A stretch of DNA of 39,263 nt from Promethearchaeota archaeon. GTDB lineage: Archaea; Asgardarchaeota; Lokiarchaeia; Sigyniarchaeales; SOKP01. The notes below the pieces were generated by a model. That model was not told the origin of the DNA. It was given only the letters and a program-made list of their open reading frames with translations, and ran no database searches. Shown piece after piece: positions 6,528 through 37,977 of the stretch. Positions within the stretch are counted from its first letter, which is position 1, and every line of letters starts with the position of its first letter. The stretch lies in contig SDNL01000003.1 in assembly GCA_004524365.1 (NCBI GenBank), forward strand, positions 1-39,263. Reading direction: 5' to 3'. Both the position numbers and the translations under genes were made by a program.

Positions 6528-6783
6528 TTAAGAAATCTATAAGATTTAGTTTTGAAGAACAGAGAAAATTGAAAAGTTCCTCATATTTTCTATTTGTTAA
6601 AGATAAATTTACGAATTTTAATTAAATAAAAATAATCTATCAGGTTTAATCTCCCCTATTTAATCTTTCTTAATATTTCAAATCGATTAATTTTTAATAT
6701 GGCTTGTTTTATAAAATCTAAATTATTCAAGCTGTTTTTATATAGAAAGATTTAATTGAATATATTATTTTTTTAAATTGAGA

Positions 6784-8019
6784 ATGGCAACCTCAAACTC
6801 CAAACTAAAAATTTATGAGCGTCCTCTTTTCATCAATATATTTCTGTTTATTGTTAATACAGGACTTTTTATCCTTAAATTAATTTTTGCATATTTTACC
6901 AATAGTCTGGCCCTTCAAGCAGATGCATTTGATAATTTAACTGATATTGTAATGGTTATCACTTCATTGATCGGAATAATCTACACAAATAAAAAACCAA
7001 ACGAAAAATTCCCCTATGGTTATTATCGATTGGAGAATATTGTAAGTTTAATTATTTCCATTTTCATTTTTTTCACCGCTTATACAATTATTAGAGATTC
7101 AATAACAGAAATGACTAATTTTTTACAAGGAGATTATAAAGCTATTATTGTTTCGCCTTTTATTATTACAATTTTAGTAATCTCTATTGTAATTTCTTTT
7201 CTTACAACATTATATTTAAAACTAATTGGAAAAAAAGCTGAATCGGAAATCATTGAATCGGAGGCGACTGAAAAATTGATGGATAATTTTATTTCCCTCA
7301 CCGTTTTATTCGGGTTTATCGGAGCCTACTTTAATATCGACATATTGGATTCAATATTTGGATTAATTATAGCTCTTTTCATAATAAAGGGGGGATATGA
7401 TATTTTTATAACCTCTACAAAAACATTATTGGATGCTGTAATTGAATTCAATAAGCGAACAGAATTAATTCAATTAATTAAAAATTTCCCAAAAGTAAGA
7501 ATTATTGACAATATTGAAATTCGAGCTTATGGAAAATATAATTATGTTGAAGCAAATTTAGAATTAAGCAAAGATCTTCCACTTTCAAAAGTGGATCTGC
7601 TAAAGAAAAAACTTATGAATGAAATTAAAAAAAAGTTCCCTGTGATCTTTAAAATTGTCATTTCTACTCGTACACCAGAAATAGAAATGACTAAGATTGC
7701 AGTACCTCTTGAAAATAACAATGGTCTAGACTCTAAAGTTCATGAAAGGTATGGAGAGGCGCCATATTTCGGGATATTAGAATTTCGTGAGGGAGATGTT
7801 TCAAAATTCGAAGTTCTTTCGAATGAATTTATTGATGAGGAGAAAAGAAAAGGAATTTTAGTATCAGATTGGTTAAGTTCAAAAAATATTGACAAAATCT
7901 ATACAGGAATGAAATTAAAGCGCGGGCCAAAACTTGTCTTCGAAAATAGTTTCATTGAGATAATTCTAACTGAAAAAAATAAATTGAACGGTATTATAGA
8001 GCAAGAAAAATCCCAATAA
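6784..8019 (+). CDS. Cation diffusion facilitator transporter with C-terminal NifX/NifB-like (FeMo-co biosynthesis family) domain
   Basis: SLALQADAFDNLTD, KFPYGYYRLE and LLD motifs plus a dimerization domain. The C-terminal KIAVPL..SKVHERYGEAPYF is NifX-like. Confidence 0.9.
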   Translation: MATSNSKLKIYERPLFINIFLFIVNTGLFILKLIFAYFTNSLALQADAFDNLTDIVMVITSLIGIIYTNKKPNEKFPYGYYRLENIVSLIISIFIFFTAYTIIRDSITEMTNFLQGDYKAIIVSPFIITILVISIVISFLTTLYLKLIGKKAESEIIESEATEKLMDNFISLTVLFGFIGAYFNIDILDSIFGLIIALFIIKGGYDIFITSTKTLLDAVIEFNKRTELIQLIKNFPKVRIIDNIEIRAYGKYNYVEANLELSKDLPLSKVDLLKKKLMNEIKKKFPVIFKIVISTRTPEIEMTKIAVPLENNNGLDSKVHERYGEAPYFGILEFREGDVSKFEVLSNEFIDEEKRKGILVSDWLSSKNIDKIYTGMKLKRGPKLVFENSFIEIILTEKNKLNGIIEQEKSQ

Positions 8020-12813: not shown

Positions 12814-13623
12814 CTATTTTAAAGCTTCAAAACTATTCGCGATAACAATAATTAGCAAAGATAATAAAATTACCAAGGGAGGCAATATTGCCTGGGTATG
12901 AGGGGCATCTGCCACCTTTAAAAGACTATAAAGAATTCTCCCGAAATAATAGATGAGAAAACCTATCCCATTTAATGCATATGATTTTCTTATTACCCCA
13001 AATGTTTTTTTAGCTAAATAGAAAAACATTATAGGAACAAGAATATTAAATAATGGTTGGAAAATGAAATTAACTATTAATCGCCCCACAGGATAATTAA
13101 ACACTACCATAGGATATACGGGAGAATCAATTCCAAATTCATTTAAGTATGTGATGTCAACCAGAAGAGCATCTGGAAACACTAACGCTAATATACCCAC
13201 AATTATAGGCGATATTATTAGAATAACTCTAAATACAAATTGAAGATTGAATTCTATATTAAATTTTCCCCCCTCTTTCACATCAGGAGGAAATAATAAA
13301 ATTCCGAGCATCCCCATCAAACACGATATTCCAATCCATGTGAAGAATACTGCAAGTCGGTAGGAAATCATTGTTAAGCCAAAATTTAGGGTTTCTGGGG
13401 CATAGAAATAATAAATAATGAAAAATACACGTGATAGAGATAATGCAATAAATAACATTGAAAAAAAGAACCAATATGACTTTTTTGATAACCGAAATCT
13501 CATTATCAAGAAATATGCGAATATTAAGAAATAATATCCTACAACTACCATATACAATCCAAGTTCTAAACTATCCCAAAAATTAAAAAAATTGAAATCT
13601 TGTATAAACATTTGTACTCCCAA
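12814..13623 (-). CDS. Uncharacterized integral membrane protein with about 7 TM helices
   Basis: Seven hydrophobic segments counted by eye in 269 aa; no soluble output domain. Confidence 0.78.
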   Translation of the reverse strand: MGVQMFIQDFNFFNFWDSLELGLYMVVVGYYFLIFAYFLIMRFRLSKKSYWFFFSMLFIALSLSRVFFIIYYFYAPETLNFGLTMISYRLAVFFTWIGISCLMGMLGILLFPPDVKEGGKFNIEFNLQFVFRVILIISPIIVGILALVFPDALLVDITYLNEFGIDSPVYPMVVFNYPVGRLIVNFIFQPLFNILVPIMFFYLAKKTFGVIRKSYALNGIGFLIYYFGRILYSLLKVADAPHTQAILPPLVILLSLLIIVIANSFEALK

Positions 13624-15497: not shown

Positions 15498-18197
15498 ATG
15501 AATAAACGAAACTTTAAATTTTCGATAAAAAAGAAGAAGAGCCCAAAAAAGAAGGTAATTGTGTTATGTATAGGGTTGCTATTTATAAATCTCGTAGTAA
15601 TTGGAGGATTATTAATTCATAATCCATATTTAAATGGCATTGGTTTAGTTCAAGAAGATAAAAATGCTCCATATTTTATAGATAAAATAAATACGCAAGG
15701 AGCTGATATTTCTCTATTACAAGATCCCTACACAGCTAATTTTAACGATACTTGGCAATTTTTTGAAAGCAATTATCAATCCGATTTAGGATATGAAATT
15801 CAAACTTATTTTAGGGAAGGAAGTGCGGATGGAACTATTATTAATAGTCTAGTTTATTCTTTAGATAATCTATTGCTATATAATACATTACTCAAATCAA
15901 TAAATGATTATGATTACTCACAGATTTTAGAAAAATATTTAGATCTAAAAAATACTGATTTATGGTATGAAGGATCGGATCAATTAGATTATGGATTTGT
16001 TGAATCAATAGATAATATTACAGGAGATGTAAATAATTATAACAGATATTTAATAGACAATTTATATCCCATCTTTCTATTGGGAGATAATATCAAAAGT
16101 TCTACCGGACAATCATATGTAGATGAATTAGAAGATATATTTTTGCTTATAAATTCAAGTAGGTTTTATGATACCAGTTCAAATATTTTCTATCATTATA
16201 ACTCTTCAACGGGAGATATCTATACAAGAGATAACTTATATGCCATATTAGGAAATTTACTTCTTAATCAAACAGATAGATTAGATAATGAGATACAAAT
16301 AAGAGCAGGAGAATTGGCGAATGAGACAATGGAAACGTTATCTAATACCTATTGGGACGCAACTAATTTAGGATATTATTATAGTGATTCAAATAATAGC
16401 AAAAATTTGGAAACAAATGCTTTAGGAATTATTACCTTAATTGAGTATTGGAAATGGACTAATAATTCCGAATATTTAAATAATGCTATCTCACTTTTCA
16501 ACAAGATAAATTCTACATTATGGTACGAATTTGCAGGAAATGGAGCATATTTGAATTGGTCAACACAGAATTGGGGGAGTAATATTACTGATATAGCTGA
16601 TTTAAAAGCTAATGCAATTATGCTACAAGCATGTGTATCATTATTTGAAGTATCAGGAAATATAACATATTATGATTTGGTAAAAGAATTATATAATACA
16701 TTTGAAAATGAATTTTATGATAATAGCTATAATTCATATGCAAAATCTAAAAGCATTAGCACCGGAATTAATAATAATAAAAATCTGCTTTATAATTTAA
16801 GAATATCTGAAGCTTATTTATCTGCTTTAGAAGTGTATGAAAATTCAAGTTTATCATCCATATTCAATAAAAGTACTCCAGTTCCCGAATTTATCTTTAA
16901 TCAAGAAACTTTAAAACTTACTACAAACTACACATATAATTCAATTTATTCCTCATATGGAATCTCTGATGCATCACTAACCTATACACTTCGATATCCT
17001 AATGGTACAATAATAGATACTCAAGAATTTGCTACAGATGAAAATGGGACACATACATTTACTTATTACATTTCAAGTGATTTACCAGTAGGAGAAGATT
17101 ATTCAATTACGATATTTGCTAATGCAAGTTTCCATAAATTCGTAAATATTACTAAATTTTTTGATATTATCGGAGGAATTAAATATGAATCAGGGTTAGA
17201 AGATGAAACTGAATATTATCAAGGGACTACACAAAATATAACATTTATACTTAATAACACAAGAAATAATGATATAAATTTGACTTATTCAATAAAAGCG
17301 GATTCAATATTGATTCAGAACCCAAAATTAGTATTCTTGAATACATCTGGTTTAAACAACATTACAGCGAATTTCACTATTAAAAATGAAGCCGCTCCAG
17401 GTAATTATTCCTTCCATTTCTTATTAAAAAATGGAAGTATTACGTTTTTAGATTATGTGAAGGTCATTGAAATAAAAAATGCACTAGAAATCACTAATTT
17501 AATTTATGACAGTGAAGTGGTAAAGGGTGATATAGCTCAGATTAATTTAACAGCAACAAATTTTCTACAAAATGAAAGCCAATCATTTAATTTGAGCATT
17601 TCTGGAGATTATATTGATAATATCCAAAACCAAGAATACCAATTATCTCCATATGAAATAAAAATAATTTCCCATATATGCAATATTAGTAATAATATAG
17701 ACTCAGATACGATTCAAGTTGAGATAGATGTCTCCAAAGGGAATGAATCATATTACACAAAATCTTTAACTTTACAAGTAGTCGATAAATTGGAAATTAT
17801 TGATTGTAGCTTCTCTCAAAGTGTAGCACAAGCTACTTCTGCTTATTTAATATTAGTTGTAAAAAACAATATGGAAACTAGTCAAGAATATACATTATAT
17901 ATTAATAATTTGAAAATAACTGGTTCCTTAAACCCTGGAGAGAACAGAATTGTTAAATCAGTAGTACCAACCATAAATCCTTATGATTTTAGCACAAAAA
18001 CATATTCTATAAGATTATATGATCAACAGAATAATGAAATTTACAGAAACTCATTTAAAGTTAATATTGAACTATCTGTTATGCTTCTAGTGTTATGCTA
18101 TATCTTGCCCATTATGGTTCCTATAGCAATTGTAATATATTTTAAAAATAAACAAGTTAAAATAGACCGTTTAAGAAAAAGTGGAAATAAAAGATGA
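15498..18197 (+). CDS. Large membrane-anchored surface glycoprotein; putative alpha/alpha-toroid (six-hairpin glycosidase-like) domain plus Ig-like beta domains
   Basis: Basic N-terminus plus TM/signal; helical repeats such as YWDATNLGYY, EYLNNAISLFNKI and NEFYDNSYNSY; beta-rich N/T/S-rich C-half; C-terminal TM with a basic tail; many NxS/T sequons. Confidence 0.7.
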   Translation: MNKRNFKFSIKKKKSPKKKVIVLCIGLLFINLVVIGGLLIHNPYLNGIGLVQEDKNAPYFIDKINTQGADISLLQDPYTANFNDTWQFFESNYQSDLGYEIQTYFREGSADGTIINSLVYSLDNLLLYNTLLKSINDYDYSQILEKYLDLKNTDLWYEGSDQLDYGFVESIDNITGDVNNYNRYLIDNLYPIFLLGDNIKSSTGQSYVDELEDIFLLINSSRFYDTSSNIFYHYNSSTGDIYTRDNLYAILGNLLLNQTDRLDNEIQIRAGELANETMETLSNTYWDATNLGYYYSDSNNSKNLETNALGIITLIEYWKWTNNSEYLNNAISLFNKINSTLWYEFAGNGAYLNWSTQNWGSNITDIADLKANAIMLQACVSLFEVSGNITYYDLVKELYNTFENEFYDNSYNSYAKSKSISTGINNNKNLLYNLRISEAYLSALEVYENSSLSSIFNKSTPVPEFIFNQETLKLTTNYTYNSIYSSYGISDASLTYTLRYPNGTIIDTQEFATDENGTHTFTYYISSDLPVGEDYSITIFANASFHKFVNITKFFDIIGGIKYESGLEDETEYYQGTTQNITFILNNTRNNDINLTYSIKADSILIQNPKLVFLNTSGLNNITANFTIKNEAAPGNYSFHFLLKNGSITFLDYVKVIEIKNALEITNLIYDSEVVKGDIAQINLTATNFLQNESQSFNLSISGDYIDNIQNQEYQLSPYEIKIISHICNISNNIDSDTIQVEIDVSKGNESYYTKSLTLQVVDKLEIIDCSFSQSVAQATSAYLILVVKNNMETSQEYTLYINNLKITGSLNPGENRIVKSVVPTINPYDFSTKTYSIRLYDQQNNEIYRNSFKVNIELSVMLLVLCYILPIMVPIAIVIYFKNKQVKIDRLRKSGNKR

Positions 18198-19903
18198 GAA
18201 TGAAAGTAAACAAAAAGGATTTCGTACTTGCGTTACTTATAACTAGTATTATTGCTAGCTTTTTTACTGTTGGATGCTTATGCAATTCATACAATTCTAT
18301 AAATTTAAAAAAAAATCCTGAAAAGAATGATTTTTCTGAAATCTTAATTGCAAATGGTAACAATGCCATTGCTACTGAAGATATATATCTTAATGACACA
18401 GAAGTTATTTCCTTATTTGAATCAATTAAAATAGATTTAAATACTTCTGAATATAATTCAAAGAATTATACAACAATTCAATTCAAGTATTCCGATGGAA
18501 CAGAATTTATTAAAAATATGAGTCATGTTTCGACCGGCGATGGAAATAATTTTACATATACTTATACCCCATCTTATAATATTCCAACTGGTATGCACCG
18601 TATTTTTTTCCAAATATACGCTGAAAATGGTACTTTATTAAATGCTAATGAAACCGAAACTACCTTTATGGTAATATCTAACTATTATGCAGCATCATTT
18701 GTAATTGAGGAAATTTATCTCGATGATACTTTGGATGTTGCGCTGACCATTAAAGATGTTGGAGGATACAGTTTTAATTATAATGTCTCAATTGTTGACT
18801 CAACTAATGAATCAGCCCAAACAGATTTAATTTTTATTGGTAATAATATCAACTGGTTCAATAGAACTATAGAGGAATCCAAGTTTAATGAAGTTAACTC
18901 GTTTTACTATATAAAAGTGAATCTCACAGATGTATCTACTGAAAAAGTGCGAGCAACATATTTCCCTTTTAAATTATTAAACAATAAACCAGAGATAATT
19001 GAAAATACGATTAATATCCCTACAGAAATCTATAGATCTAATACTAATAATGGTTTTGTATCCTTAAATATTTCTGATGTTGAAACTGATCCACAGAATC
19101 TTACTGTGTCTATGGTTTTTACAGAAAAGTTTGGAGAACAAGTTGGAATCCCCAAGATTTTAAATCGAGAAAGTTATAACAACTTCTCTACAGCATTTCA
19201 TATAGGAACAAGCAATCCAATAGGAACTTATTATGTGAACATAACTGCAATGGATTTAAATAGTGGGTCTAGCTCATATATTACTACTCTTCAGGTAAAA
19301 AATAATCCTCCTGAAATAAATAGTTATAAAATAAATGGTCAAGAAAGAACCGAGAGTATCTCTGTAAACTATGGCGACGATTTAAGTTTTATTTTTAATA
19401 TAACCGATAAAGATAGCAATATTGAATTTGTTACTGTTTCCTTATTTGGAGATAATGGACAATGGTTCAATATAACAAGAGATTACAAAGAAGATATGAT
19501 AATATCTGTGAGTTCTTATGATTTAGTTCAAGGGAGTTGGTATGTGTATATCTCTGTGTTAGATTCAGATGGGGCGCGTACAAGCTTGACTTCAGATTAT
19601 GGTTTAGCACCACAACAAATCCAAATTATTCCCGATGTTCTAAGCGATATTCTACCTTGGATTTCTTTAGTGATTGGAGTGATTATAGGCTTGATTGTTG
19701 GAACTGGACTAGCATACAAACTGCTCAAAATGAGGACGGAGAAGGATTTAAAACCTAAAAAGAAAACAAAAGCTAAAAAGAAAGAGGAAAAAACTCCGAA
19801 AAAACAACCTCCAAAAGAAAAAGAACCAAAAGAAGAAAAAGTAGAAGAAGAAAAAAAAGAAAAAGTAAAACCATCGAAACGCAAAATTAAACGTGGGTTT
19901 TAA
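18194..19903 (+). CDS. Type I membrane surface protein with Ig/cadherin-like beta repeats and Lys/Glu-rich cytoplasmic tail
   Basis: Signal peptide; NNKPEI and NNPPEI repeat starts; C-terminal TM (ILPWISLVIGVIIGLIVGTGLAY); low-complexity K/E/P tail. ATGA overlap with the upstream gene. Confidence 0.72.
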   Translation: MRMKVNKKDFVLALLITSIIASFFTVGCLCNSYNSINLKKNPEKNDFSEILIANGNNAIATEDIYLNDTEVISLFESIKIDLNTSEYNSKNYTTIQFKYSDGTEFIKNMSHVSTGDGNNFTYTYTPSYNIPTGMHRIFFQIYAENGTLLNANETETTFMVISNYYAASFVIEEIYLDDTLDVALTIKDVGGYSFNYNVSIVDSTNESAQTDLIFIGNNINWFNRTIEESKFNEVNSFYYIKVNLTDVSTEKVRATYFPFKLLNNKPEIIENTINIPTEIYRSNTNNGFVSLNISDVETDPQNLTVSMVFTEKFGEQVGIPKILNRESYNNFSTAFHIGTSNPIGTYYVNITAMDLNSGSSSYITTLQVKNNPPEINSYKINGQERTESISVNYGDDLSFIFNITDKDSNIEFVTVSLFGDNGQWFNITRDYKEDMIISVSSYDLVQGSWYVYISVLDSDGARTSLTSDYGLAPQQIQIIPDVLSDILPWISLVIGVIIGLIVGTGLAYKLLKMRTEKDLKPKKKTKAKKKEEKTPKKQPPKEKEPKEEKVEEEKKEKVKPSKRKIKRGF

Positions 19904-21113: not shown

Positions 21114-22016
21114 TTAAAGTAATTCGTGAAGATTATATTGATATTTACCCAATTTGCCACCGTAATTTCCTGCAGAAATACGAGTTATTCCAGGAATCTC
21201 TATAGCTGCTTCAATTCCCTGTTTAATAGCGGATTTAACAGCCTTTTCCGTTGCACCGTCTAAAATAACCTCATATACGCAATTTTCCCCTTCTTTTAAT
21301 AAAGAGTTGTCTATTTTATCTTTCAGTGTAGGACAAAGTGGATCATTAGTAGAAGCCCCTAAAAAGTCATACTTGGAGCCTACTTTTGAGCCAGAGCGGG
21401 CAATCCCTCCAGGAAACGGCGCTATAACATTAGGTACATCTTTAATAGCTTCAACAGCTTTACTGGCGGCCTTTAAGGTTGCAGTTTGGTTCTCTCCCAT
21501 TATTAAAAAGTTTCCACCTGCAATTCCCTTGCCCACCTTAAATTTACTTTCAACGATAAATTCTCCGTCCATAACTGGAATTTTCCATCCTTCTACGGGT
21601 TCATCAATTTTTTCTTCGAATTTGTCCCCAAAAAATTTCAGTTTATATCCGGTTTTTACCTCAAATTCTTTTTCAGGGTTTAGGGAAGTCTCCAGTCCAT
21701 CAAAACAAGCTGTTGTGGGGCATGTGAGAATACACTGTCCGATTCGACTAAGCAACACTTGATCGACTTTCTTTTTATCGCCTACAAAAAACATTAATGC
21801 AGCTCCAACACGTCCATCCGGTGTTTGATCGGGAGATATATATACATCTCTTGCTGCTTCTGAATCACAATGAATCGTAGATGTACCATACCCAGTTGCT
21901 TCTTGAGCACAGATATCTAACCAATTCTTATCTTCTGCTGTGACAATAACTCGAGCAAAATAATTACCAAACGCCTCACAATAAGTATCTTCAATAGTTA
22001 CTCCATTCTTTTCCAT
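21114..22016 (-). CDS. ftr: Formylmethanofuran--tetrahydromethanopterin N-formyltransferase
   Basis: NGVTIEDTYCEAF, TPDGRVG, RIGQCILTCPTTACF, PFPGGIARSGSKVGSKY, ISAGNYGGKLG. Alternative GTG start at 22028. Confidence 0.96.
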   Translation of the reverse strand: MEKNGVTIEDTYCEAFGNYFARVIVTAEDKNWLDICAQEATGYGTSTIHCDSEAARDVYISPDQTPDGRVGAALMFFVGDKKKVDQVLLSRIGQCILTCPTTACFDGLETSLNPEKEFEVKTGYKLKFFGDKFEEKIDEPVEGWKIPVMDGEFIVESKFKVGKGIAGGNFLIMGENQTATLKAASKAVEAIKDVPNVIAPFPGGIARSGSKVGSKYDFLGASTNDPLCPTLKDKIDNSLLKEGENCVYEVILDGATEKAVKSAIKQGIEAAIEIPGITRISAGNYGGKLGKYQYNLHELL

Positions 22017-22450
22017 ATTTTTTTTCACCGTAATATAATTTACATAATTATAATTATCAATTCTTTAAAAAATATATTTAGAGATTATTATTTTTGAAGT
22101 GATGACCGATGCTAAATATCTGGACATTTGGCAACATCCCAAATCTCCTTTTGAGGGATCTTCCCATCTCTTAAGTAAAATCGGCTATTAGCCAAATTAA
22201 AAAGGATTAATGTAATATCTGGAGGTAACTTGTATTCTCTTATTTTTTCTGCAAAATTATAACGTCATATTTGTATTTCAAAATATTTAATCGTTATTTA
22301 GGGGCAAATATTTATTCATATTTGGTTTCTTCAATAAAAGTTCCACTAAAATAGATGATTGGATTCAAAATTAAAAAAATTCTAAAATTATAAAAAAAAT
22401 TCATAATTATTTACTTTAAATTTAATAAACTAATCTTAAGTTGATAAAAA

Positions 22451-23293
22451 ATGAGTGATTTACTTAAAATTGGTGTCTTGAAGAACGGCACAATTGGAAG
22501 TTCTTTACTGCTTTCTTTCTTGATCGATGAGCGAGCAGAAGGAGAAAAATTAGAATTTCGTGAAGTTACATCTGGACCCAAAATGCATCCTGCTGAATAT
22601 TGCGTTGAGACGATGAAAGAACTTTTAGAGTATGAGCCTGATTTAATTCTTATGAGCTCTCCAAATGCCGCTTTGGGCGGACCAAAAAAAGCAAGAGAAT
22701 TAGCAGGAGACATTCCAACAATTGTGATCTCGGACGCTCCAACCAAGAAAGCGAAAGATGAAATTAAAGAAAAAGGAATGGGCTATATAATAGTAAACTG
22801 TGATTCAATGATAGGAGCACGTAGACCCTTCCTCGACCCAGTCGAAATGAGTTTTTTCAATTCAAACTTGCTAAAAGTGTTAGCTGGTACGGGAGCATTG
22901 AAGTTAATGATGGAAGAGATTAACAAAGTTATTATGGACTTATTGGAAGGTAAAACTCCCACACTTCCTCAAATAACGATTAAGGCAGATAATGCAACCG
23001 AGAGAGCTGAATTTTCTAATCCTTACGCACGAGCCAAAGCAATAGCCGCTTTTGAGATCGCCGAAAAAGTTTCCCAGATTACTGGAAAGGCTTGTTTTGT
23101 TATGAAAGAGCGGGAGAATTATATGCCTCAACTAGCAGCAGCTCATGAAATGATGAGAGAGGCAGCTGAATTAGTACAAGTAGCAAGAGAGATTGAAAAA
23201 TCCAATAATACTGTAGTTAGAGTGCCACATCACAAGAACCAGTACCTTCTAAAGAAGACTAAATTAATAGAAAAAGAAGAACCAATTAAATAA
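22451..23293 (+). CDS. mtd: F420-dependent methylenetetrahydromethanopterin dehydrogenase
   Basis: KNGTIGSS, DERA, SGPKM, SPNAALGGP, DSMIGARRPFLDPVEM, FSNPYARAKA, AAAHEMMR. Confidence 0.95.
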   Translation: MSDLLKIGVLKNGTIGSSLLLSFLIDERAEGEKLEFREVTSGPKMHPAEYCVETMKELLEYEPDLILMSSPNAALGGPKKARELAGDIPTIVISDAPTKKAKDEIKEKGMGYIIVNCDSMIGARRPFLDPVEMSFFNSNLLKVLAGTGALKLMMEEINKVIMDLLEGKTPTLPQITIKADNATERAEFSNPYARAKAIAAFEIAEKVSQITGKACFVMKERENYMPQLAAAHEMMREAAELVQVAREIEKSNNTVVRVPHHKNQYLLKKTKLIEKEEPIK

Positions 23294-23362: not shown

Positions 23363-24331
23363 TTACATCGAAAAATGAAATTCTCCATTAGTAAAAATTT
23401 TCTCCAATTCTTTAAATTCAGTACTATTAAAGACTTTCATGACATCAAAATAAACTTCCTCCTTTTTATTATCAGTAGCTGCCATGATGACCGCTTCATT
23501 GACTAACTCTTTAATGATAATATAAGAATTTTCACTCTCATACACTATAATTGATAATTGTAAGGGAGTTACGTCACAACTTTTCTTTAAATCCATCACT
23601 TTTCTATAGATTTGATAAATGTTAAGATCTAATGAAGAAAGTTCGAGTTTCATAAACTCTAATGGTTCCGATTGGAATTTACCTAGGGTGGATGTTATGA
23701 GTAAACCATCAGGTCGATTAAAGAGGAAATAGTCTGCTAATGTGCTTCTCTTCAATTTATCCATTATATGACGTATTTTTCCCAGTCGCTGGAGTGCTAA
23801 AGTCGATTTCTGAATTTCAGTATCCAATATTTCGATTAAACGATGTTGGGCAGTTCCTTGTTTGACAGATACGGGAGTTACTTCAAGTTTTTCCTCAACC
23901 TCTTCTCCTACTCCATCCAATAATAATTTTAGTATTTCATCTTCTTTTGAATCATGCAAATCAATTTTATTTAGTAATACATAAACATTTTCTATATGTG
24001 GACTATATTGAAATATATACGATACAAATTTCGCAAATACTTCTTGTATTTCGGGTTCAGGAGCTGAAGCATCTACCATAAATACCGGAGTTGTGACTTC
24101 AGAGAAGACAAAATCTCGCTTCGTATCGGAAAAATAGTCTTTTAAATATCTTTCTTGGCCTCCCGCATCCCAAACATTAATTTCCATAAGCCCTCTGAAG
24201 ATAAAATTCTCACGGGAAATACCTTTCGTCGGCGGGAGGTTTGCAACTTTCATAAAATTATAGCCTTGACATGCTGTACGCATAAGAGAAGTTTTTCCCG
24301 CCCCTGCAGGCCCGAATAGTAGCACTTTCAT
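23363..24331 (-). CDS. Rag/Gtr1-like small GTPase with C-terminal roadblock/longin-like domain
   Basis: G1 GPAGAGKTS, G2 PTKG, G3 WDAGGQ, G4 NKID, G5 VSVK. The roughly 140 aa C-domain has the FLFNRPDGLLITS roadblock-like pattern. Confidence 0.82.
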   Translation of the reverse strand: MKVLLFGPAGAGKTSLMRTACQGYNFMKVANLPPTKGISRENFIFRGLMEINVWDAGGQERYLKDYFSDTKRDFVFSEVTTPVFMVDASAPEPEIQEVFAKFVSYIFQYSPHIENVYVLLNKIDLHDSKEDEILKLLLDGVGEEVEEKLEVTPVSVKQGTAQHRLIEILDTEIQKSTLALQRLGKIRHIMDKLKRSTLADYFLFNRPDGLLITSTLGKFQSEPLEFMKLELSSLDLNIYQIYRKVMDLKKSCDVTPLQLSIIVYESENSYIIIKELVNEAVIMAATDNKKEEVYFDVMKVFNSTEFKELEKIFTNGEFHFSM

Positions 24332-30289: not shown

Positions 30290-31288
30290 ATGCATCATGT
30301 AAAAGTAAATAGCTTGGCTAGAAATATTGTAAACAAAATTATTGAAAATAAGGAATACTATGGGGCAGAAATAAAGAAACTGGAAAATGGAGCAACTGTT
30401 ATTGGAATGAAGAAAGGTACATGGGAAGGAGGGAGATTAGTTGGAGAAATCTGTATGGGAGGATTGGGGACTGTTGACTTTACACACTTCACTATTGATA
30501 ATCATTATATTCCCGCTGTTAATGTCTATACATCTTATCCAATAATTTCTTGTATGGCTTCACAATTAGCCGGTTGGAGCGTTAAAATAAAAAAGAAAGT
30601 TGAGAAAGATGGGGAAATAAAGAAAAAGAAAGTATTTGATTCCTTAGGTTCTGGACCCGCTCGAGCTAAAAGTAAAGTAGAAAAATTATTTGAAGAAATT
30701 GATTACCAAGATGATTCAGATTGTGCAGTTATCGTTTTTGAAACCTCAAAAGCACCCAATGAAGAAGTTATGGGACTAGTTGCCGATAAATGTGGAGTCG
30801 ATACATCGGAAACATATGCCGTTTATGCTCCGACCGCGTGTTTAACGGGTTCAATTCAAGTTGCTGCAAGAATAGTAGAAACAGGGATTCATAAATTACA
30901 TGAGATTAAATTTCCTTTGGAAGTCCTTCAAGATGGTTTTGGAACAACAACTATTGCTCCAATTGCAAAAGATGATTTAGGTGCTATGGGGCGAACGAAT
31001 GATTCACTGATCGCAGGTGGAATGACTTATTATACAATTAAAGCTGATAAGGAGGAAGAACAAGAATTATTTGAGTTAATTCGAAAAGACGGTCCTGCTA
31101 ATACATCATCGAGTTATGGAGATCCATTCCTTAAAACATTTAAAGATGTAAATTATAAATTTTATGATATTGACCCGGGTTTATTTGCCCCTGCAACTTA
31201 CACAATCAATAACCTTAAGACGGGACATTCCATTTCCGCAGGTTTAAAGAACTTGGATTTATTAAAAGAATCATATAAATTAGATTAA
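30290..31288 (+). CDS. mch: Methenyltetrahydromethanopterin cyclohydrolase
   Basis: EICMGGLG, CMASQLAGW, GSGPARA, GSIQVAARIVETGIHK, AMGRTND, FYDIDPGLFAPA. Confidence 0.96.
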   Translation: MHHVKVNSLARNIVNKIIENKEYYGAEIKKLENGATVIGMKKGTWEGGRLVGEICMGGLGTVDFTHFTIDNHYIPAVNVYTSYPIISCMASQLAGWSVKIKKKVEKDGEIKKKKVFDSLGSGPARAKSKVEKLFEEIDYQDDSDCAVIVFETSKAPNEEVMGLVADKCGVDTSETYAVYAPTACLTGSIQVAARIVETGIHKLHEIKFPLEVLQDGFGTTTIAPIAKDDLGAMGRTNDSLIAGGMTYYTIKADKEEEQELFELIRKDGPANTSSSYGDPFLKTFKDVNYKFYDIDPGLFAPATYTINNLKTGHSISAGLKNLDLLKESYKLD

Positions 31289-31362: not shown

Positions 31363-32457
31363 TTAAATGCTAGTTAATTCTTCCTTATACTTAATAATTT
31401 CAGCGTTAGATACATCTCTATCAAAGGTAATCTCTTTCTGAATACCGAGATAGGCAACAGCAAGTTTAGCAGCCGCCACAATTTCCGCTTTTTTTAGAGT
31501 TTTCGAATACTCTTCGCTGGAGCTATAATTATTTACATCAAATGATGATTTCTGGTAATTATCCTTATTGAGATTAAAAGAACGTTCAGTTTTCATAGAA
31601 TGAAGCAAACTAGCCATTTTATCTGCCACGATAAAAGGTAAATTATTTTTTGTTATTAACCGTGTAATATTGTTTACATCAAAATAATTTAAACTATCGA
31701 ACTTAGCTCTCAAATAGCTTTTAAGATTATCAGAATTAAGTTCACATTCCATCTCTGTCCAATCATGAATACCAAGGCGTCTTCGAAAGAAGATTAACTC
31801 CCAGTCAATTCCGAGTTCCTTTAAAAACTCTAAAAGTTTATCTCCATTAATCACTTTTGATTCTATAATAATATACAATTGAAGACCATAATATTGATGT
31901 TCTTCTTTAAGAAAGAGCCCTCGTTGTTGCATAGAAGCCAATATCTTCAATTTTATGGAAAATACATTTTCAGATAAATTTCTTTGAACACAAGTTAGAT
32001 ATTCGACATTTCCTTCTTCTTTACTATAATTACAATCGAGAAATCCCAAAATGCTTTCATTATTTTCTTCTACAAAATTTATTAATCCATTGAGGGTAGG
32101 TTTTACATCAAATTTCACTAAATCTTTTTCCCCAATGGTAACATAATCTGTTTTATTCGCTCCAATACCCAATTTAATCATATTTAACTCTAAGCCTTTA
32201 TCGTCTCCAAACACTTTTTTAATCGCGTCATTGATTGGAAATACTTCTTCCTCTAAGATCTTCATTTCTGCCATTGTACTTTCATAAGGCTCTGGATTTT
32301 TAAGGTATTTATTCAAGATCGGGGCTTCTGACGCATCAACCTCAATTTCATAATCCTTTGCTAAATTCTTCCTTATGACAGTAAAGAACCGATTTTTACG
32401 ATTATAAATAGTAAGTGCTGTATTTTTATCGGCGACTGCTCTAAATTTTTCTGTCAT
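31363..32457 (-). CDS. Hypothetical soluble protein
   Basis: Long ORF with normal composition and no recognised motif. ATG32457 is preferred; a TTG at 32511 is possible. Confidence 0.75.
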   Translation of the reverse strand: MTEKFRAVADKNTALTIYNRKNRFFTVIRKNLAKDYEIEVDASEAPILNKYLKNPEPYESTMAEMKILEEEVFPINDAIKKVFGDDKGLELNMIKLGIGANKTDYVTIGEKDLVKFDVKPTLNGLINFVEENNESILGFLDCNYSKEEGNVEYLTCVQRNLSENVFSIKLKILASMQQRGLFLKEEHQYYGLQLYIIIESKVINGDKLLEFLKELGIDWELIFFRRRLGIHDWTEMECELNSDNLKSYLRAKFDSLNYFDVNNITRLITKNNLPFIVADKMASLLHSMKTERSFNLNKDNYQKSSFDVNNYSSSEEYSKTLKKAEIVAAAKLAVAYLGIQKEITFDRDVSNAEIIKYKEELTSI

Positions 32458-32595
32458 CTTCTTCTCTGTTCTGTCGGAATTGGGATTTTTACGACGAATG
32501 GTTAATATCAACTATTTTTTATGGTTATTAAAGTAATAAAAATTTATCTATATATGTTTAATGGATATATGTTATAAAAAAAATACCCTTTATAA

Positions 32596-33135: not shown

Positions 33136-34380
33136 ATGGTAAGGGAACGATTAAGTATTGGCATGTATTCGTGCCTATATAGTCAAATTAACGGCAGTGC
33201 GCATGCTGTTCGATTTTTAAGCGAAGAGTTAGCAAAATTAGGACATGATGTTCACGTATTTGCTCCACGTATTGTAAATGGACACCAAAAACCCAAACAT
33301 CTTCATTATCATGATTTAGGAGGTGCTCGTGTTGCAGATTCAACGGGTTTTATATTAAGTTTCCCACTTCACCAAGCATTTGCCCCTGCCCCCAATTATT
33401 TAGATGTAGCACATATTCAAACCCATGTTTCGATAGGTGCATTAGCAATTCATTGGGCAAAGAGAACGGGAACACCAATCATTGGATCCCATCATTCGCC
33501 AATGACTTATTACACGAATAACATCCCTATCATTGGTAAGTTTCTCATGAAAAATGACCTTATTTGGCGATATGAAAGATTAATGATGGAAAAATATGAT
33601 CTCTGTCATGTCCCGACACCTACAAAAAAAGAAATGCTTTTAAATTATCGTTTTAAGGAACCTATTGTTGCTCTCACCAATGGTATACGAGATTATTATT
33701 TTAAAAATGTTAATTGTAATGGAATTCTCGAAAAATATGGAATTAAAGGCAAAAAAGTTATGCTTTATGCATCCCGATTAGCCCCAGAAAAACATCCTAT
33801 AAGAATTATTAAATCATTTAAACGAATTCACAAGCGAGTACCAGATGCGCACTTATTACTTGTGGGTTCAGCAGGACCTTCATCAAATGCAGTAGAAAGA
33901 ATTGTTAAAAAAAGAAAATATAGAGATTTTGTCTCATATGGAGGAAGAGTTTCTTTTGAAGATTTAGTCAAGCTTTATAATGCTGCAGATATATCAGCTT
34001 TATGGTCTTGGGTTGAAGCAGAGGGTTTAGTATTGCTAGAGGCAATGGCTCAAGGAACTCCCAACGTAGGAACAAATGCAAGCGGAATAGCAAATGTAAT
34101 CCGGCATGGAGAAACAGGATTCTTAGCAAATGATTTACAAGAGTTTGAAGATTATGTTGTTAAATTATTAAAAGAGGACGATTTAAGGGAACAATTCGGA
34201 AAAAATGCTCGAAAAGTTGCTGAAGATTACAGATTAGAAAATGTTGCTCGTAAATGGGTGGAACTATACAAATTAACAAGAGATCAACTTTACCCTTTAA
34301 GATACCACGGAGAAGAAAGAGCCGAACGAGTAGAAATAACTAAAAACTTCGCCAGAAATGAAAAAAGTATATATTTCTAA
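33136..34380 (+). CDS. Glycosyltransferase family 4 (GT-B)
   Basis: NGSAHAV..LAKLGHDVHVFAP, SRLAPEKH and EAEGLVLLEAMAQGTP (E-x7-E) motifs. Confidence 0.93.
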   Translation: MVRERLSIGMYSCLYSQINGSAHAVRFLSEELAKLGHDVHVFAPRIVNGHQKPKHLHYHDLGGARVADSTGFILSFPLHQAFAPAPNYLDVAHIQTHVSIGALAIHWAKRTGTPIIGSHHSPMTYYTNNIPIIGKFLMKNDLIWRYERLMMEKYDLCHVPTPTKKEMLLNYRFKEPIVALTNGIRDYYFKNVNCNGILEKYGIKGKKVMLYASRLAPEKHPIRIIKSFKRIHKRVPDAHLLLVGSAGPSSNAVERIVKKRKYRDFVSYGGRVSFEDLVKLYNAADISALWSWVEAEGLVLLEAMAQGTPNVGTNASGIANVIRHGETGFLANDLQEFEDYVVKLLKEDDLREQFGKNARKVAEDYRLENVARKWVELYKLTRDQLYPLRYHGEERAERVEITKNFARNEKSIYF

Positions 34381-34577: not shown

Positions 34578-35606
34578 ATGTCTGATGATAAAGAGAGAGA
34601 AGTGAACGATAATCGTAATGAAAATCGTGAGAAAGTTGATAAAGAAGCGATTCCGCATTTTTTTCCTACATTTCGAATGAAAAGAACATTATACCCCATC
34701 CCAATCATTATCACAATGCTAGGAGCAGGCATATTAGCATATTTATCATATATCGTAGCAGGAATTCAAATAGAAGGAGGATATTTTTCTGAAGCTGAAT
34801 TTGGATTTATTGCTGCACTACTCAATGGATTAATTTTTACTGGAATAGCCGTTGGCTCAGCCTTTTTAATCGTTATCATAGTGAAAAAAAAAGGGGTTAA
34901 TGCCTTAAAATATATATTTGGAATTAGTTTACTTCTTATTGGCATATTAGAAACCATTTTTTTTGGTGAGATAATTTTATTCCTATTCTTCAATTCTATT
35001 CCTGAGTTTCCAACTATTCAGCTTACCTATAATATATCCTATTATATAATGATAGCTTTGATAGTAATATTTAATATTTATATGATTTATAGGTATTTTA
35101 CGACTGTAAGCATTATAATAAAGAATTTTATTGTAATTTATATTGGGCTTATCACAGGCGCATTGATGGGAATTGTGATGCCTCCTTGGACCACAATCGC
35201 AATATTGGTGGGCATTTCGCTCTATGATATCTATGCGGTTCTTCATAAACACGGTCCAATTAAACAAATGATTGATCTTATTACAGAAAATGAGGAGGAA
35301 GATGATCAAATTGAAGAAAGGATTAAAAGTGGCGAAGTAGAGTACGATACCTCTAGCTTAGAATTAGGAATTGGTGATTTAGTATTTTATTCTATGTTAA
35401 CTTCTACCGCATTGGTTATTAAGAATCTTTTCTTTTTAGAAAACTTAATCATTACTTTATTATCAGGGGTTGCTATAATAATTGGGGCGGCAATTACCAT
35501 TCATAATTTGAAAAAAAATAAGATTCTTCCTGGATTACCGATTTCCATATTTCTTGGCTTAGCAACTATGCTTATCTCTTGGGCAATCTTCGCTTTTATC
35601 CTCTAA
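34578..35606 (+). CDS. Presenilin-family (A22) GxGD intramembrane aspartyl protease
   Basis: YD motif (ISLYDIYAVL), GxGD (LGIGDLVFYS), PAL-equivalent LPGLPISIFLGL; about 9 TM helices with an acidic loop between the two catalytic helices. Confidence 0.92.
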   Translation: MSDDKEREVNDNRNENREKVDKEAIPHFFPTFRMKRTLYPIPIIITMLGAGILAYLSYIVAGIQIEGGYFSEAEFGFIAALLNGLIFTGIAVGSAFLIVIIVKKKGVNALKYIFGISLLLIGILETIFFGEIILFLFFNSIPEFPTIQLTYNISYYIMIALIVIFNIYMIYRYFTTVSIIIKNFIVIYIGLITGALMGIVMPPWTTIAILVGISLYDIYAVLHKHGPIKQMIDLITENEEEDDQIEERIKSGEVEYDTSSLELGIGDLVFYSMLTSTALVIKNLFFLENLIITLLSGVAIIIGAAITIHNLKKNKILPGLPISIFLGLATMLISWAIFAFIL

Positions 35607-35694: not shown

Positions 35695-35964
35695 ATGTCC
35701 GATTCATCTAGTCCCGGGTTCGAAAAACTCGTAAAATTTATCAATAATTCTCTTGAAGTAAATTCTCCAGTTGATATAGCGGAAATTGAAAAGAAAACTG
35801 GTTTATCTTGGACTTATGTCAAGCGTTTACTAAACCAACTGAAAAAGCAAGATTATATAGGATTTCATTTCGAAAAGATTGGAAATTCTTGGGCAATCTG
35901 GAAGAGCCGGGAGCATATTATCAAACCAATGGATGATACATGTGGGAGATTTTTAGAAGATTAA
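35695..35964 (+). CDS. Small winged helix-turn-helix protein
   Basis: VDIAEIEKKTGLSWTYVKRLLNQL (HTH) followed by the beta-hairpin FHFEKIGNSWAIW. Confidence 0.75.
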   Translation: MSDSSSPGFEKLVKFINNSLEVNSPVDIAEIEKKTGLSWTYVKRLLNQLKKQDYIGFHFEKIGNSWAIWKSREHIIKPMDDTCGRFLED

Positions 35965-37047: not shown

Positions 37048-37977
37048 TTACAGATTTTTTTTGATGTCCTTAACCCGACTACGAAGTGTAACTTCCGTAA
37101 TTCCTGCGATATCGCTTACTTCTTTTTGTGTTTTTCTATCATCGGTGCTTTTTGCCGCCATGTATAATACACTTGCAGCGAAGCCCTTGGGATCTTTTCC
37201 TACTCGATTTAAACCGCCTTTCGTAGAATTCTTGAGCAACTTATATGCTTCTTTCTGGGTATTTAGTGGTAAATTTAAGTCGTTTCCAAATCGGAAAATT
37301 AATTGTTCTGAAGTGATTGGACGATACTTTAAATTCAAGTCAGGTAAGATCTGTTTGATTATCATACCAAGTGATCGAATAATTGTATGTCTAGAGGTCA
37401 TTGCTGCATCGGATACTTCTTCTAGGAGGCGTGGAAATTCATGAATTCTGATCGCTGCATAGAGCGAAGCCCCAATAAATCCGTCAATTGATCGTCCCAT
37501 TGTTAACTTGCGCTTGGCAACCTCTGTGTAGATTCTCCAAGCAGTTTCCTCAATATATTCGGGAATATTTAACTTAGAGACTAGCATTTTCAATTTTGGT
37601 TTTGCTTCCCAGAAATTCCTCTCGATACTTGAAACGAGTGATTGCTGAATCTTTGATAATCTTGAAAATAATGTTTTATCCTTTACATTTAATTTATTTC
37701 CCTTAGAATCTACAGATTCGTTAGGAAGGATCGTGCGAGGTCCAAAACCGCGCCACCTTGGTTCAGTTTGCCGTCTTTTCTCGACTTCCTGAGCGGTATA
37801 AGCCCTTCTTTCGTTTTTTACAATATTCTTTCCGAAAACCATACCGCAGTTAATACATACGAAGTTGCTATCCCTTGGCTCAATGCAAGGATTCTCGCAA
37901 CATTTGGTTTCCCCATATTCGGCATCAATTTGATTTTTCCTCTGCTTTCTTAGCCGATCTTTATAATTATTAGCCAT
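37048..37977 (-). CDS. tfb: Transcription initiation factor IIB (TFB paralog)
   Basis: Zn ribbon ..VCINCGMV, B-reader-like ERRAY, cyclin repeats with GRSIDGFIGASLYAAIR, GKDPKGFAASVLY and TQKEVSDIAGITEVTLRSR. Confidence 0.95.
   Translation of the reverse strand: MANNYKDRLRKQRKNQIDAEYGETKCCENPCIEPRDSNFVCINCGMVFGKNIVKNERRAYTAQEVEKRRQTEPRWRGFGPRTILPNESVDSKGNKLNVKDKTLFSRLSKIQQSLVSSIERNFWEAKPKLKMLVSKLNIPEYIEETAWRIYTEVAKRKLTMGRSIDGFIGASLYAAIRIHEFPRLLEEVSDAAMTSRHTIIRSLGMIIKQILPDLNLKYRPITSEQLIFRFGNDLNLPLNTQKEAYKLLKNSTKGGLNRVGKDPKGFAASVLYMAAKSTDDRKTQKEVSDIAGITEVTLRSRVKDIKKNL

Follow-up and report, generated by a model that had tools for sequence, protein, structure and literature searches.

Besides already annotated Asgard relatives, three groups of GxGD intramembrane aspartyl proteases are the closest described systems to the gene analysed here: the presenilins PSEN1 and PSEN2 of human gamma-secretase, the archaeal presenilin homologues (PSH), including MCMJR1, and the SPP/SPPL proteins. 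Cofactor-free archaeal presenilin homologues have been known since 2010–2013, and eukaryote-like, PF01080-type presenilins were noted in Loki, Heimdall and MK-D1 in 2021 (PMC7997004, in the part accessible), with database records already so named; the gene therefore adds little as a discovery. MCMJR1 is active with PPL in place of PAL (accessible part of PMC2947513), and therefore the middle residue of the PxL motif varies in a working enzyme. We examined a 39,263-nucleotide stretch (hereafter the window; contig SDNL01000003.1, assembly GCA_004524365.1), whose host is a Lokiarchaeial (Promethearchaeota) Asgard archaeon. Its open reading frame (ORF) at 34578..35606 (+), exactly where a first-pass annotation of the DNA had placed it, starts with ATG and encodes a presenilin-family protein of 342 amino acids (aa), referred to as the query. 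We consider it likely that this protein is a stand-alone GxGD intramembrane aspartyl protease with nine transmembrane helices (TM) and a cytoplasmic N-terminus (N-in). The features on which the argument turns are as follows.

34578..35606 (+): presenilin-family GxGD intramembrane aspartyl protease gene, 342 aa, activity predicted; from the ORF, PF01080, PDB sequence matches, the AlphaFold2 model and Foldseek

34641..34697 (+): cytoplasmic juxtamembrane motif before TM1, residues 22–40, K..IPHFFPTFRMKRTLYP; from the alignment of 32 relatives

35226..35228 (+): codon of the predicted first catalytic Asp (D217, 'YD' in TM6); aligns to PSEN1 'YD'

35244..35366 (+): short acidic cytoplasmic TM6–TM7 loop, residues 223–263, with GP motif and EYDTS hairpin; from DSSP of the model and the alignment

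35367..35378 (+): GIGD (G264–D267) with the predicted second catalytic Asp, at the start of TM7; aligns to PSEN1 GLGD

35529..35537 (+): PGL (P318-G319-L320), the PAL counterpart at the start of TM9; from the alignment

A start at M1 is reasonable, since IPHFFPTFRMKR (residues 25–36), which is conserved, precedes the next methionine, M34. The query matched the Pfam family PF01080 (Presenilin, which we take to be MEROPS A22A) at 89.2 bits and E 3.3e-25, against a gathering cut-off of 34.3, in two stretches corresponding to its N- and C-terminal halves. PF01080 was the single Pfam family at E≤0.01; at this threshold there was no match to the SPP family (A22B, presumably PF04258) or to PF06550 ('SPP', which we assume to be the family of MCMJR1), and a scan of NCBIfam gave no matching model. 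When PDB sequences were searched with phmmer at E≤1, all eight matches were PSEN1 or PSEN2, with E 2.2e-9 for PSEN1 chain 5a63_B, again in two stretches, and 3.5e-9 for PSEN2 chain 7y5x_B. A profile of 32 family sequences strengthened these matches to 2e-14 for PSEN1 and 1.6e-11 for PSEN2, the remaining two rows (E 0.57 and 2.5) being chance matches. PSH chains appeared neither in the phmmer search (E≤1) nor in the profile search of the PDB (E≤10). The three strings that the first-pass annotation had likened to human PSEN1 lie at residues 202–234 (PPWTT...MIDL, with D217), 261–274 (LELGIGDLVFYSML, with D267) and 315–328 (KILPGLPISIFLGL, with P318-G319-L320), and they are exactly the stretches that HMMER aligns to those PSEN1 strings, so its reading frame, strings and PSEN1 match all held. 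Judged by sequence, the match to presenilin is far beyond chance. These data support a presenilin-type protein (PF01080, N-in, nine helices, YD/GxGD/PxL) rather than an SPP and, as far as profile searches tell, one apart from MCMJR1-type PSH as well.

The family is large and mostly Asgard-borne among its best members. A word-indexed protein search scored 7998 candidates and retrieved 466 relatives at E≤1e-3. The best 120 of these 466 (the 120 relatives below, as distinct from the 32 relatives of the aligned family) all belong to PF01080 and are 51–79 % identical to the query, the window's own record being 100 %; their named sources are Promethearchaeota/Lokiarchaeota, Thorarchaeota and Hodarchaeota. 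Several are titled "MAG: Presenilin", one UniRef record is "Presenilin", and the JGI titles of P0125 and P0160 are A22-family proteases. The closest database relative (P0002) is 79 % identical and the closest genome locus in GTDB (L001) 78 %. Scanning GTDB with one genome per species gave 140 pattern matches, 123 of which encode a relative; the best 80 of the 123 were kept, and all counts out of 80 refer to them. By NCBI rank they are Promethearchaeota/Promethearchaeia (55), uncultured archaeon without rank (13), Hermodarchaeota (4), Hodarchaeota (3), Odinarchaeota (2), Thorarchaeota (2) and Actinomycetota (1).

An exhaustive search of 1.84 billion representatives returned 708 matches at E≤1e-3, of which 156 passed E≤1e-10 and 13 passed E≤1e-30, and 113 of the 150 listed representatives, short fragments being left out, were scanned against Pfam. 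Eukaryote-type presenilins score 260–800 bits with PF01080, are long and all PAL, and are in some cases fused to ArfGap or PDZ; prokaryote-type proteins score 22–125 bits, a range that includes the query's 89. The eukaryote-type label was based on Pfam scores, one named sequence (P0243, "Eukaryota sp. TZLM3-RCL") and two spot checks against human PSEN1 (P0237, E 7e-82; P0249, E 1e-55). Named prokaryote-type rows come from Helarchaeota (P0146, P0149), Promethearchaeota (P0126) and Ca. Lokiarchaeum ossiferum (P0165), with Thermoprotei/Thermofilum as cluster members of P0164, P0257 and P0208. The Thermofilum-type P0208 matches PSEN1 (E 4.7e-5) and not PSH. On these sequence comparisons, PF01080-type presenilins appear as a broad archaeal class across Asgard and TACK that is distinct from the crystallised euryarchaeal PSH, with the query as an average member. 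P0132 and P0253 (E 3e-32 and 1e-11; 10 and 4 stretches) were rejected as relatives and kept out of the trees: they are tandem RhoGAP-repeat proteins with inflated scores, because a weak 48-residue similarity to the TM6–loop region (35–38 % identity, phmmer) repeats 10 and 4 times. Among distant prokaryote-type homologues we also observed fusions to LRV/HEAT repeats (P0130, 1100 aa; P0144, 855 aa), FG-GAP repeats (P0180, P0207), a zinc ribbon in the loop (P0163) and TPR repeats (P0182).

The motifs of the active site are intact and conserved throughout. D217 is invariant in 32/32 relatives, and its column holds Asp in all 71 rows of the careful-tree alignment described below, which covers all groups and whose columns give every 71-row count. 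The first-Asp motif and the Asp–Asp distance were read from alignment columns, a regular-expression count being unreliable in long-loop proteins. This motif is WD in 115 of the 120 relatives and YD in five, the query included, and the PSEN1-like YD is thus a minority state within its own family. GIGD occurs in 120/120 close relatives, with G264, I265, G266 and D267 invariant in 32/32, and D267 lies 50 residues from D217. PGLP is equally constant (120/120; P318, G319, L320 and P321 invariant in 32/32). Of 88 other prokaryote-type representatives, 57 have PGL, 25 PAL and six another form, and eukaryote-type rows are PAL in 20/20. PGL is the majority state of archaeal PF01080-type proteins and is therefore a trait of the whole archaeal group, not of the query alone. 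The GP motif after TM6 is present in 70/71 aligned rows and in every group (G226, P227 and I228 invariant in 32/32 relatives). The first-pass annotation had pointed to PGL in place of PAL and to the GP helix; P318-G319-L320 is present as described, but both features belong to the archaeal group at large.

Two cytoplasmic elements are, by contrast, specific to the core family. In the loop, Y256-D257-T258-S259 and E262 are invariant in 32/32 relatives, and YDTS is confined to the query family in the 71-row alignment. In the N-terminal motif, the 32 relatives show no variation at K22, P26, P30 and T31 and at least 90 % conservation at H27, F29, R33, R36, Y39 and P40; P26/P30/T31 reads 'PPT' in 10/11 query-family rows and in 0/60 other rows. 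Both EYDTS, in the hairpin, and PxxxPT, near the N-terminus, are core-family-specific motifs.

An AlphaFold2 model built on the 32-sequence alignment (mean pLDDT 79.7, pTM 0.77) contains nine long helices, at residues 40–60, 72–105, 109–139, 145–175, 179–200, 203–222, 265–279, 286–311 and 319–341. According to DSSP of this model, a short helix (227–235) follows immediately past the GP motif, a further helix spans 241–250, the strands of a beta-hairpin (254–256 and 260–264) abut GIGD, and the N-terminal tail has strands at 18–20 and 31–35. The TM6–TM7 loop has 42 residues (223–264), with 13 Asp/Glu against 4 Lys/Arg, which bears out the short acidic loop of the first-pass annotation and, together with a PF01080 protein that finds PSEN1/2 and not PSH, its minimal presenilin. 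Foldseek against the PDB ranked PSEN1 in inhibitor- or substrate-bound gamma-secretase first, at E 1e-8 to 1e-7, with TM-scores of 0.63–0.68 normalised to the query (TMq) and 0.70–0.75 to the target (TMt) and 21–23 % identity. Archaeal PSH came second (4hyg, 4y6k and 4hyc; E 4.6e-5 for 4hyg to 2e-4, TMq 0.53–0.55, TMt 0.70–0.74 with 0.74 for 4hyg, identity 15–18 %), and SPPL2a third (9k93; E 1.2e-3, TMq 0.49, TMt 0.58, identity 13 %). With the N-terminus inside, 16 Lys+Arg fall on the inside and one on the outside, and the short loops of the 32 family members average 3.3 inside and 0.4 outside. This charge distribution therefore predicts the presenilin-like N-in orientation and not the inverted one of SPPs, which are N-out.

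In the mechanism that we propose, D217 (TM6) and D267 (GIGD, TM7) would face each other within the membrane as the catalytic pair, and PGL318–320 at the start of TM9 would take the part of PSEN1's PAL in shaping the active-site pocket. The TM6–TM7 loop would provide a small helix past GP and a beta-hairpin directly before GIGD, and the hairpin may dock on or pair with the extended segment of a substrate. The analogy is with gamma-secretase bound to substrate, where the complexes 6iyc and 6idf show the beta-2 strand of PSEN1. Most likely the protein acts alone, with no nicastrin, APH-1 or PEN-2 and no loop endoproteolysis, like MCMJR1/PSH, and in turnover or signalling it would cut single-pass membrane proteins within their transmembrane segments. 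As for activating endoproteolysis, the 42-residue loop has no counterpart of the long loop. The query is somewhat closer to PSEN1 in sequence than PSH is (Foldseek identities of 21–23 % against 15–18 %, and a HMMER match that PSH does not give), and an Asgard enzyme this compact, made of one chain, could therefore serve better as a minimal model of the gamma-secretase active site.

The gene sits in a conserved neighbourhood, for which a neighbour was counted when a locus had a homologue within 7 kb:

30290..31288 (+): Mch; upstream of presenilin in 63/80 loci

31363..32511 (-): soluble protein, 382 aa in the window and about 360–380 aa in the family; upstream of presenilin in 65/80 loci

33136..34380 (+): GT4-family glycosyltransferase (Pfam Glycos_transf_1, E 2.7e-35), upstream neighbour across a 198-bp gap; same strand upstream in 74–75/80 loci

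35695..35964 (+): 89-aa winged-helix-like protein, downstream neighbour on the same strand, with winged helix-turn-helix (wHTH) matches weak and below Pfam cut-offs; homologue in 60–64/80 loci

other loci: Peptidase_M54 (archaemetzincin), directly upstream of presenilin and divergent, in 68–69/80

other loci: 3-hydroxyacyl-CoA dehydrogenase, directly downstream of presenilin on the same strand, in 71–72/80

The window and L001 are without the M54 and 3-hydroxyacyl-CoA dehydrogenase genes at the presenilin locus, and the window lineage has lost or moved the M54 gene. Where it is present, M54 stands head-to-head with the presenilin gene, e.g. at L002 8976..9773 (-) and L005 9072..9818 (-), which places two proteases on one divergent intergenic region. 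The single Actinomycetota entry (L055, DATKTW010000152.1), labelled 'Candidatus Nanopelagicaceae bacterium', is almost certainly a mis-binned Asgard contig, because it carries the full block from Mch, the unknown protein, GT4 and M54 through presenilin to 3-hydroxyacyl-CoA dehydrogenase and wHTH at 31 % GC.

To place the query among presenilins, trees were built from those of the 150 listed representatives that have 270–700 aa and contain GxGD followed by PxL; fusions, repeats and partial sequences (P0130, P0132, P0144, P0227, P0226, P0235, P0253) were also dropped. A quick tree of 121 rows (88 other, 20 eukaryote-type, 13 query-family) and 308 columns united the eukaryote-type rows in one clade (95) and put the query in a separate 31-row clade (100), and a split with an SH-aLRT of 96 grouped eukaryotes with Thermoprotei-like PAL-type proteins. 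For the careful tree (IQ-TREE, LG+C20+F+G4 PMSF; 317 columns) the set was thinned to 71 rows by cutting the longest branches, e.g. P0219, P0203, P0155, P0238, P0233 and P0259. Here the 14 eukaryote rows are monophyletic (99/100) on a long stem, and the query falls in a 21-row Lokiarchaeial superclade (100/99) from which eukaryotes are excluded. Deep backbone support is 14/1 and 75/77. P0243, a short and divergent eukaryotic protein, moved about in quick trees and lies within the eukaryote clade in the careful tree. All trees are unrooted, with no PSH or SPP outgroup.

Several points weigh against a stand-alone protease. The least confident parts of the model are the loop (block pLDDT 54–65) and the N-terminal tail (32–55), and the N-in orientation is a prediction from the positive-inside rule. 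The PSEN1 mutations P433L, A434D and L435R abolish activity (PMC2647162, in the part accessible), and inactive A434D means that the middle position of PxL is not indifferent. No activity study of any Asgard-subfamily member was found in the searched literature; more broadly, a full-text search, with subscription journals and the supplements of large Asgard papers outside it, gave no biochemistry, structure or phylogeny of the Asgard subfamily. None of the searched full texts pairs nicastrin with Asgard, a search on gamma-secretase and Asgard archaea gave nothing on topic by title or abstract, and the searched literature on archaeal presenilin-homologue phylogeny held none on Asgard. Cofactors were sought across the 39-kb window and, through Pfam scans of representatives, among the conserved genes that lie up to about 7 kb away in the 80 loci. 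Within this scope, nicastrin, Aph-1 and PEN-2 had no Pfam match at default thresholds among 33 ORFs (28+5) of the window, nine unannotated window ORFs rescanned at E≤1 gave none of the three, and no cofactor was found among the scanned representatives of the conserved neighbour families (GT4, M54, 3-hydroxyacyl-CoA dehydrogenase, wHTH, Mch and the soluble 382-aa protein). To that extent, over 39 kb and neighbourhoods of about 7 kb, the data agree with the suggestion of the first-pass annotation that the protein may work without cofactors. That the query instead needs unrecognised archaeal partners, analogues of nicastrin, APH-1 and PEN-2 encoded elsewhere, seems to us quite unlikely. The genome is visible only over 39 kb, the invariant cytoplasmic motifs of the core family (IPHFFPT..R..R and the EYDTS hairpin) could be interaction surfaces, and an M28-family peptidase lies directly downstream in two of the 80 loci, the nicastrin ectodomain having an M28-like fold. 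Yet no membrane protein is among the conserved neighbours in the 80 loci, the cofactor families gave no Pfam match, and MCMJR1 and SPP work alone (accessible parts of PMC2947513 and PMC2647162). The M28 protein itself (soluble Peptidase_M28, 397 aa; L002 11095..12288 (+), L003 11065..12258 (+)) was rejected as a proto-nicastrin, being confined to these two loci, absent from the window and, in its printed sequence, without a hydrophobic anchor. The 382-aa neighbour was set aside as a membrane partner (no hydrophobic segment, no Pfam match), and so was a 269-aa multi-pass protein (12814..13623, -) as APH-1-like (no Pfam or PDB match); the latter has six hydrophobic segments, and its look-alikes in the ESM Atlas are unnamed clusters, almost all from Promethearchaeota. 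Nor do we favour a cation (Ca2+) leak channel over a protease as the main cellular role, which we judge very unlikely. In the accessible text, PMC7997004 assigns Asgard homologues to TC 1.A.54 (Presenilin ER Ca2+ leak channel family) and proposes that they control calcium influx, an idea that PMC9433394, likewise seen in part, repeats in the context of Ca-regulated gelsolins. However, this idea is based on homology only and is compatible with proteolysis, and the Asp pair, GxGD and PxL are invariant in 120/120 relatives, as purifying selection on a protease site would give.

A stand-alone protease leaves its ancestry to be weighed. Eukaryotic presenilin may have the query family as its direct archaeal sister or ancestor, passed down vertically from an Asgard ancestor as a proto-gamma-secretase catalytic subunit; we regard this as possible but doubtful. 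The host is an Asgard archaeon, the query is a PF01080 protein with no SPP-family match, PSEN1 is its best Foldseek match, and the approximately unbiased (AU) test on the unrooted tree does not reject a clade of eukaryotes and the 21-row superclade (log-likelihood difference (delta lnL) 0.83, p 0.284). However, both trees, quick and careful, put eukaryotes outside this superclade, with the weak backbone given above, and a union of eukaryotes with the 12-row Thermoprotei-like PAL group does just as well (delta lnL 0.26, p 0.461), whereas union with the 10-row core family is borderline-rejected (delta lnL 15.9, p 0.053). The eukaryotic states are also commoner in the Thermoprotei-like group (PAL 10/12, GLGD 8/12) than in the query family (0/11 for each). 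The missing outgroup and the long eukaryote stem also count against the idea, and the AU groups were chosen with the quick tree already in view; several eukaryote rows are compositionally deviant. The query family is not shown as sister or direct ancestor of eukaryotic presenilins, and the phylogeny that the first-pass annotation proposed as a check does not place eukaryotes with it. Of the claimed closeness to the eukaryotic subunit, a modest match remains (PF01080, PSEN1 at E 2e-9 and 21–23 % identity), and nothing special to this gene: Thermoprotei-type and other Asgard homologues match PSEN1 too, P0165 better (6.4e-13, against the query's 2.2e-9). Intramembrane proteolysis does predate eukaryotes, as was also claimed, but this has been established since the work on MCMJR1 (accessible part of PMC2947513) and does not come from the query. 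In a further-reaching and improbable version, Lokiarchaeial PGL-type presenilins would be the true sister of all eukaryotic presenilins and keep a cofactor-free ancestral state of gamma-secretase with mechanistic cytoplasmic elements. The N-terminal IPHFFPT-R-K-R strand (31–35 in the model) would then pair with the pre-GIGD hairpin (260–264), the strands being of equal length, and this built-in beta-sheet would replace the hybrid enzyme–substrate sheet of PSEN1 and be self-gating or autoinhibitory; if so, eukaryotes later swapped it for loop endoproteolysis and accessory subunits. Finally, a gene acquired from a eukaryote by horizontal transfer, or a contaminant or chimeric contig, might be suspected from the match to a eukaryote-type Pfam family, but is effectively refuted. 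The flanks are archaeal, with TFB (37048..37977, -), Ftr, Mtd, Mch and ribosomal protein S10; GC content stays uniform near 30 % along the whole window; the block of Mch, unknown protein, GT4, presenilin and wHTH recurs in 63–75/80 Asgard loci; eukaryotes are monophyletic outside the archaeal clades; and PF01080-type homologues occur in Thermoprotei and Helarchaeota too.

Elsewhere in the window, Ftr, Mtd and Mch (21114..22028, -; 22451..23293, +; 30290..31288, +) of the tetrahydromethanopterin (H4MPT) C1 pathway share one 10-kb stretch. A class II aminoacyl-tRNA synthetase is encoded too. Between Mtd and a phosphoribosyltransferase lies a 322-aa small GTPase (23363..24331, -) with Pfam matches to Gtr1_RagA (E 5e-22) and to Arf; the eukaryotic signature proteins of Asgard archaea include GTPases of the RagA/Gtr1 type. 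Two ORFs of 899 and 569 aa (15498..18197, + and 18194..19903, +) overlap by 4 bp. Each has a hydrophobic segment at either end, so that they may be surface proteins anchored in a type I-like manner; they have no Pfam family above cut-offs and a weak MG2 match. Single-pass proteins like these are the kind of substrate that a presenilin-type protease would take, and no link was found. The ORF at 6778..8019 (+) encodes a CDF cation-efflux transporter with a C-terminal Nitro_FeMo-Co domain, an unusual domain combination. A scan of the window gave no tRNA and no Rfam RNA.

Compared with known systems, the query is nearest to annotated Asgard proteins named 'Presenilin' or 'presenilin-like A22 family membrane protease', which have the same Pfam family, size class and motifs and share its gene neighbourhood in 63–75 of 80 genome loci; it differs in having YD where 115 of the 120 relatives have WD. 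In Ca. Lokiarchaeum ossiferum the protein (NEF87_001720, P0165; 454 aa, GSGD, PAL) is longer and paralogue-like, and it falls in the same superclade. With human PSEN1/2 (5a63, 6iyc, 6idf, 7c9i, 7y5x) the query has in common YD, GxGD, PxL-P, the GP after TM6, nine helices and, as predicted for the query, the N-in orientation, and PSEN1 is its best PDB match by both sequence and structure. The similarity is nevertheless far below that of eukaryote-type presenilins to PSEN1 (E 1e-55 to 1e-82, against 2e-9 and 21–23 % identity for the query). The query has PGL and GIGD for the PAL and GLGD of PSEN1, an Asp pair 50 residues apart where PSEN1 has a long loop with an endoproteolysis site, and is without the long N-terminal tail of PSEN1; the cofactor genes were not found in the 39-kb window. 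The GxGD aspartyl intramembrane fold is also common to SPP/SPPL proteins, which work without cofactors, although SPPL2a (9k93) is the weakest of the three structural matches and the orientation predicted for the query is the opposite one. MCMJR1/PSH (4hyg, 4hyc, 4y6k) is a compact archaeal GxGD protease that shares the fold, with no detectable sequence match and 15–18 % identity in Foldseek. MCMJR1 has PPL and is active without cofactors or endoproteolysis (accessible part of PMC2947513), and it thus offers the best functional analogy for the query.

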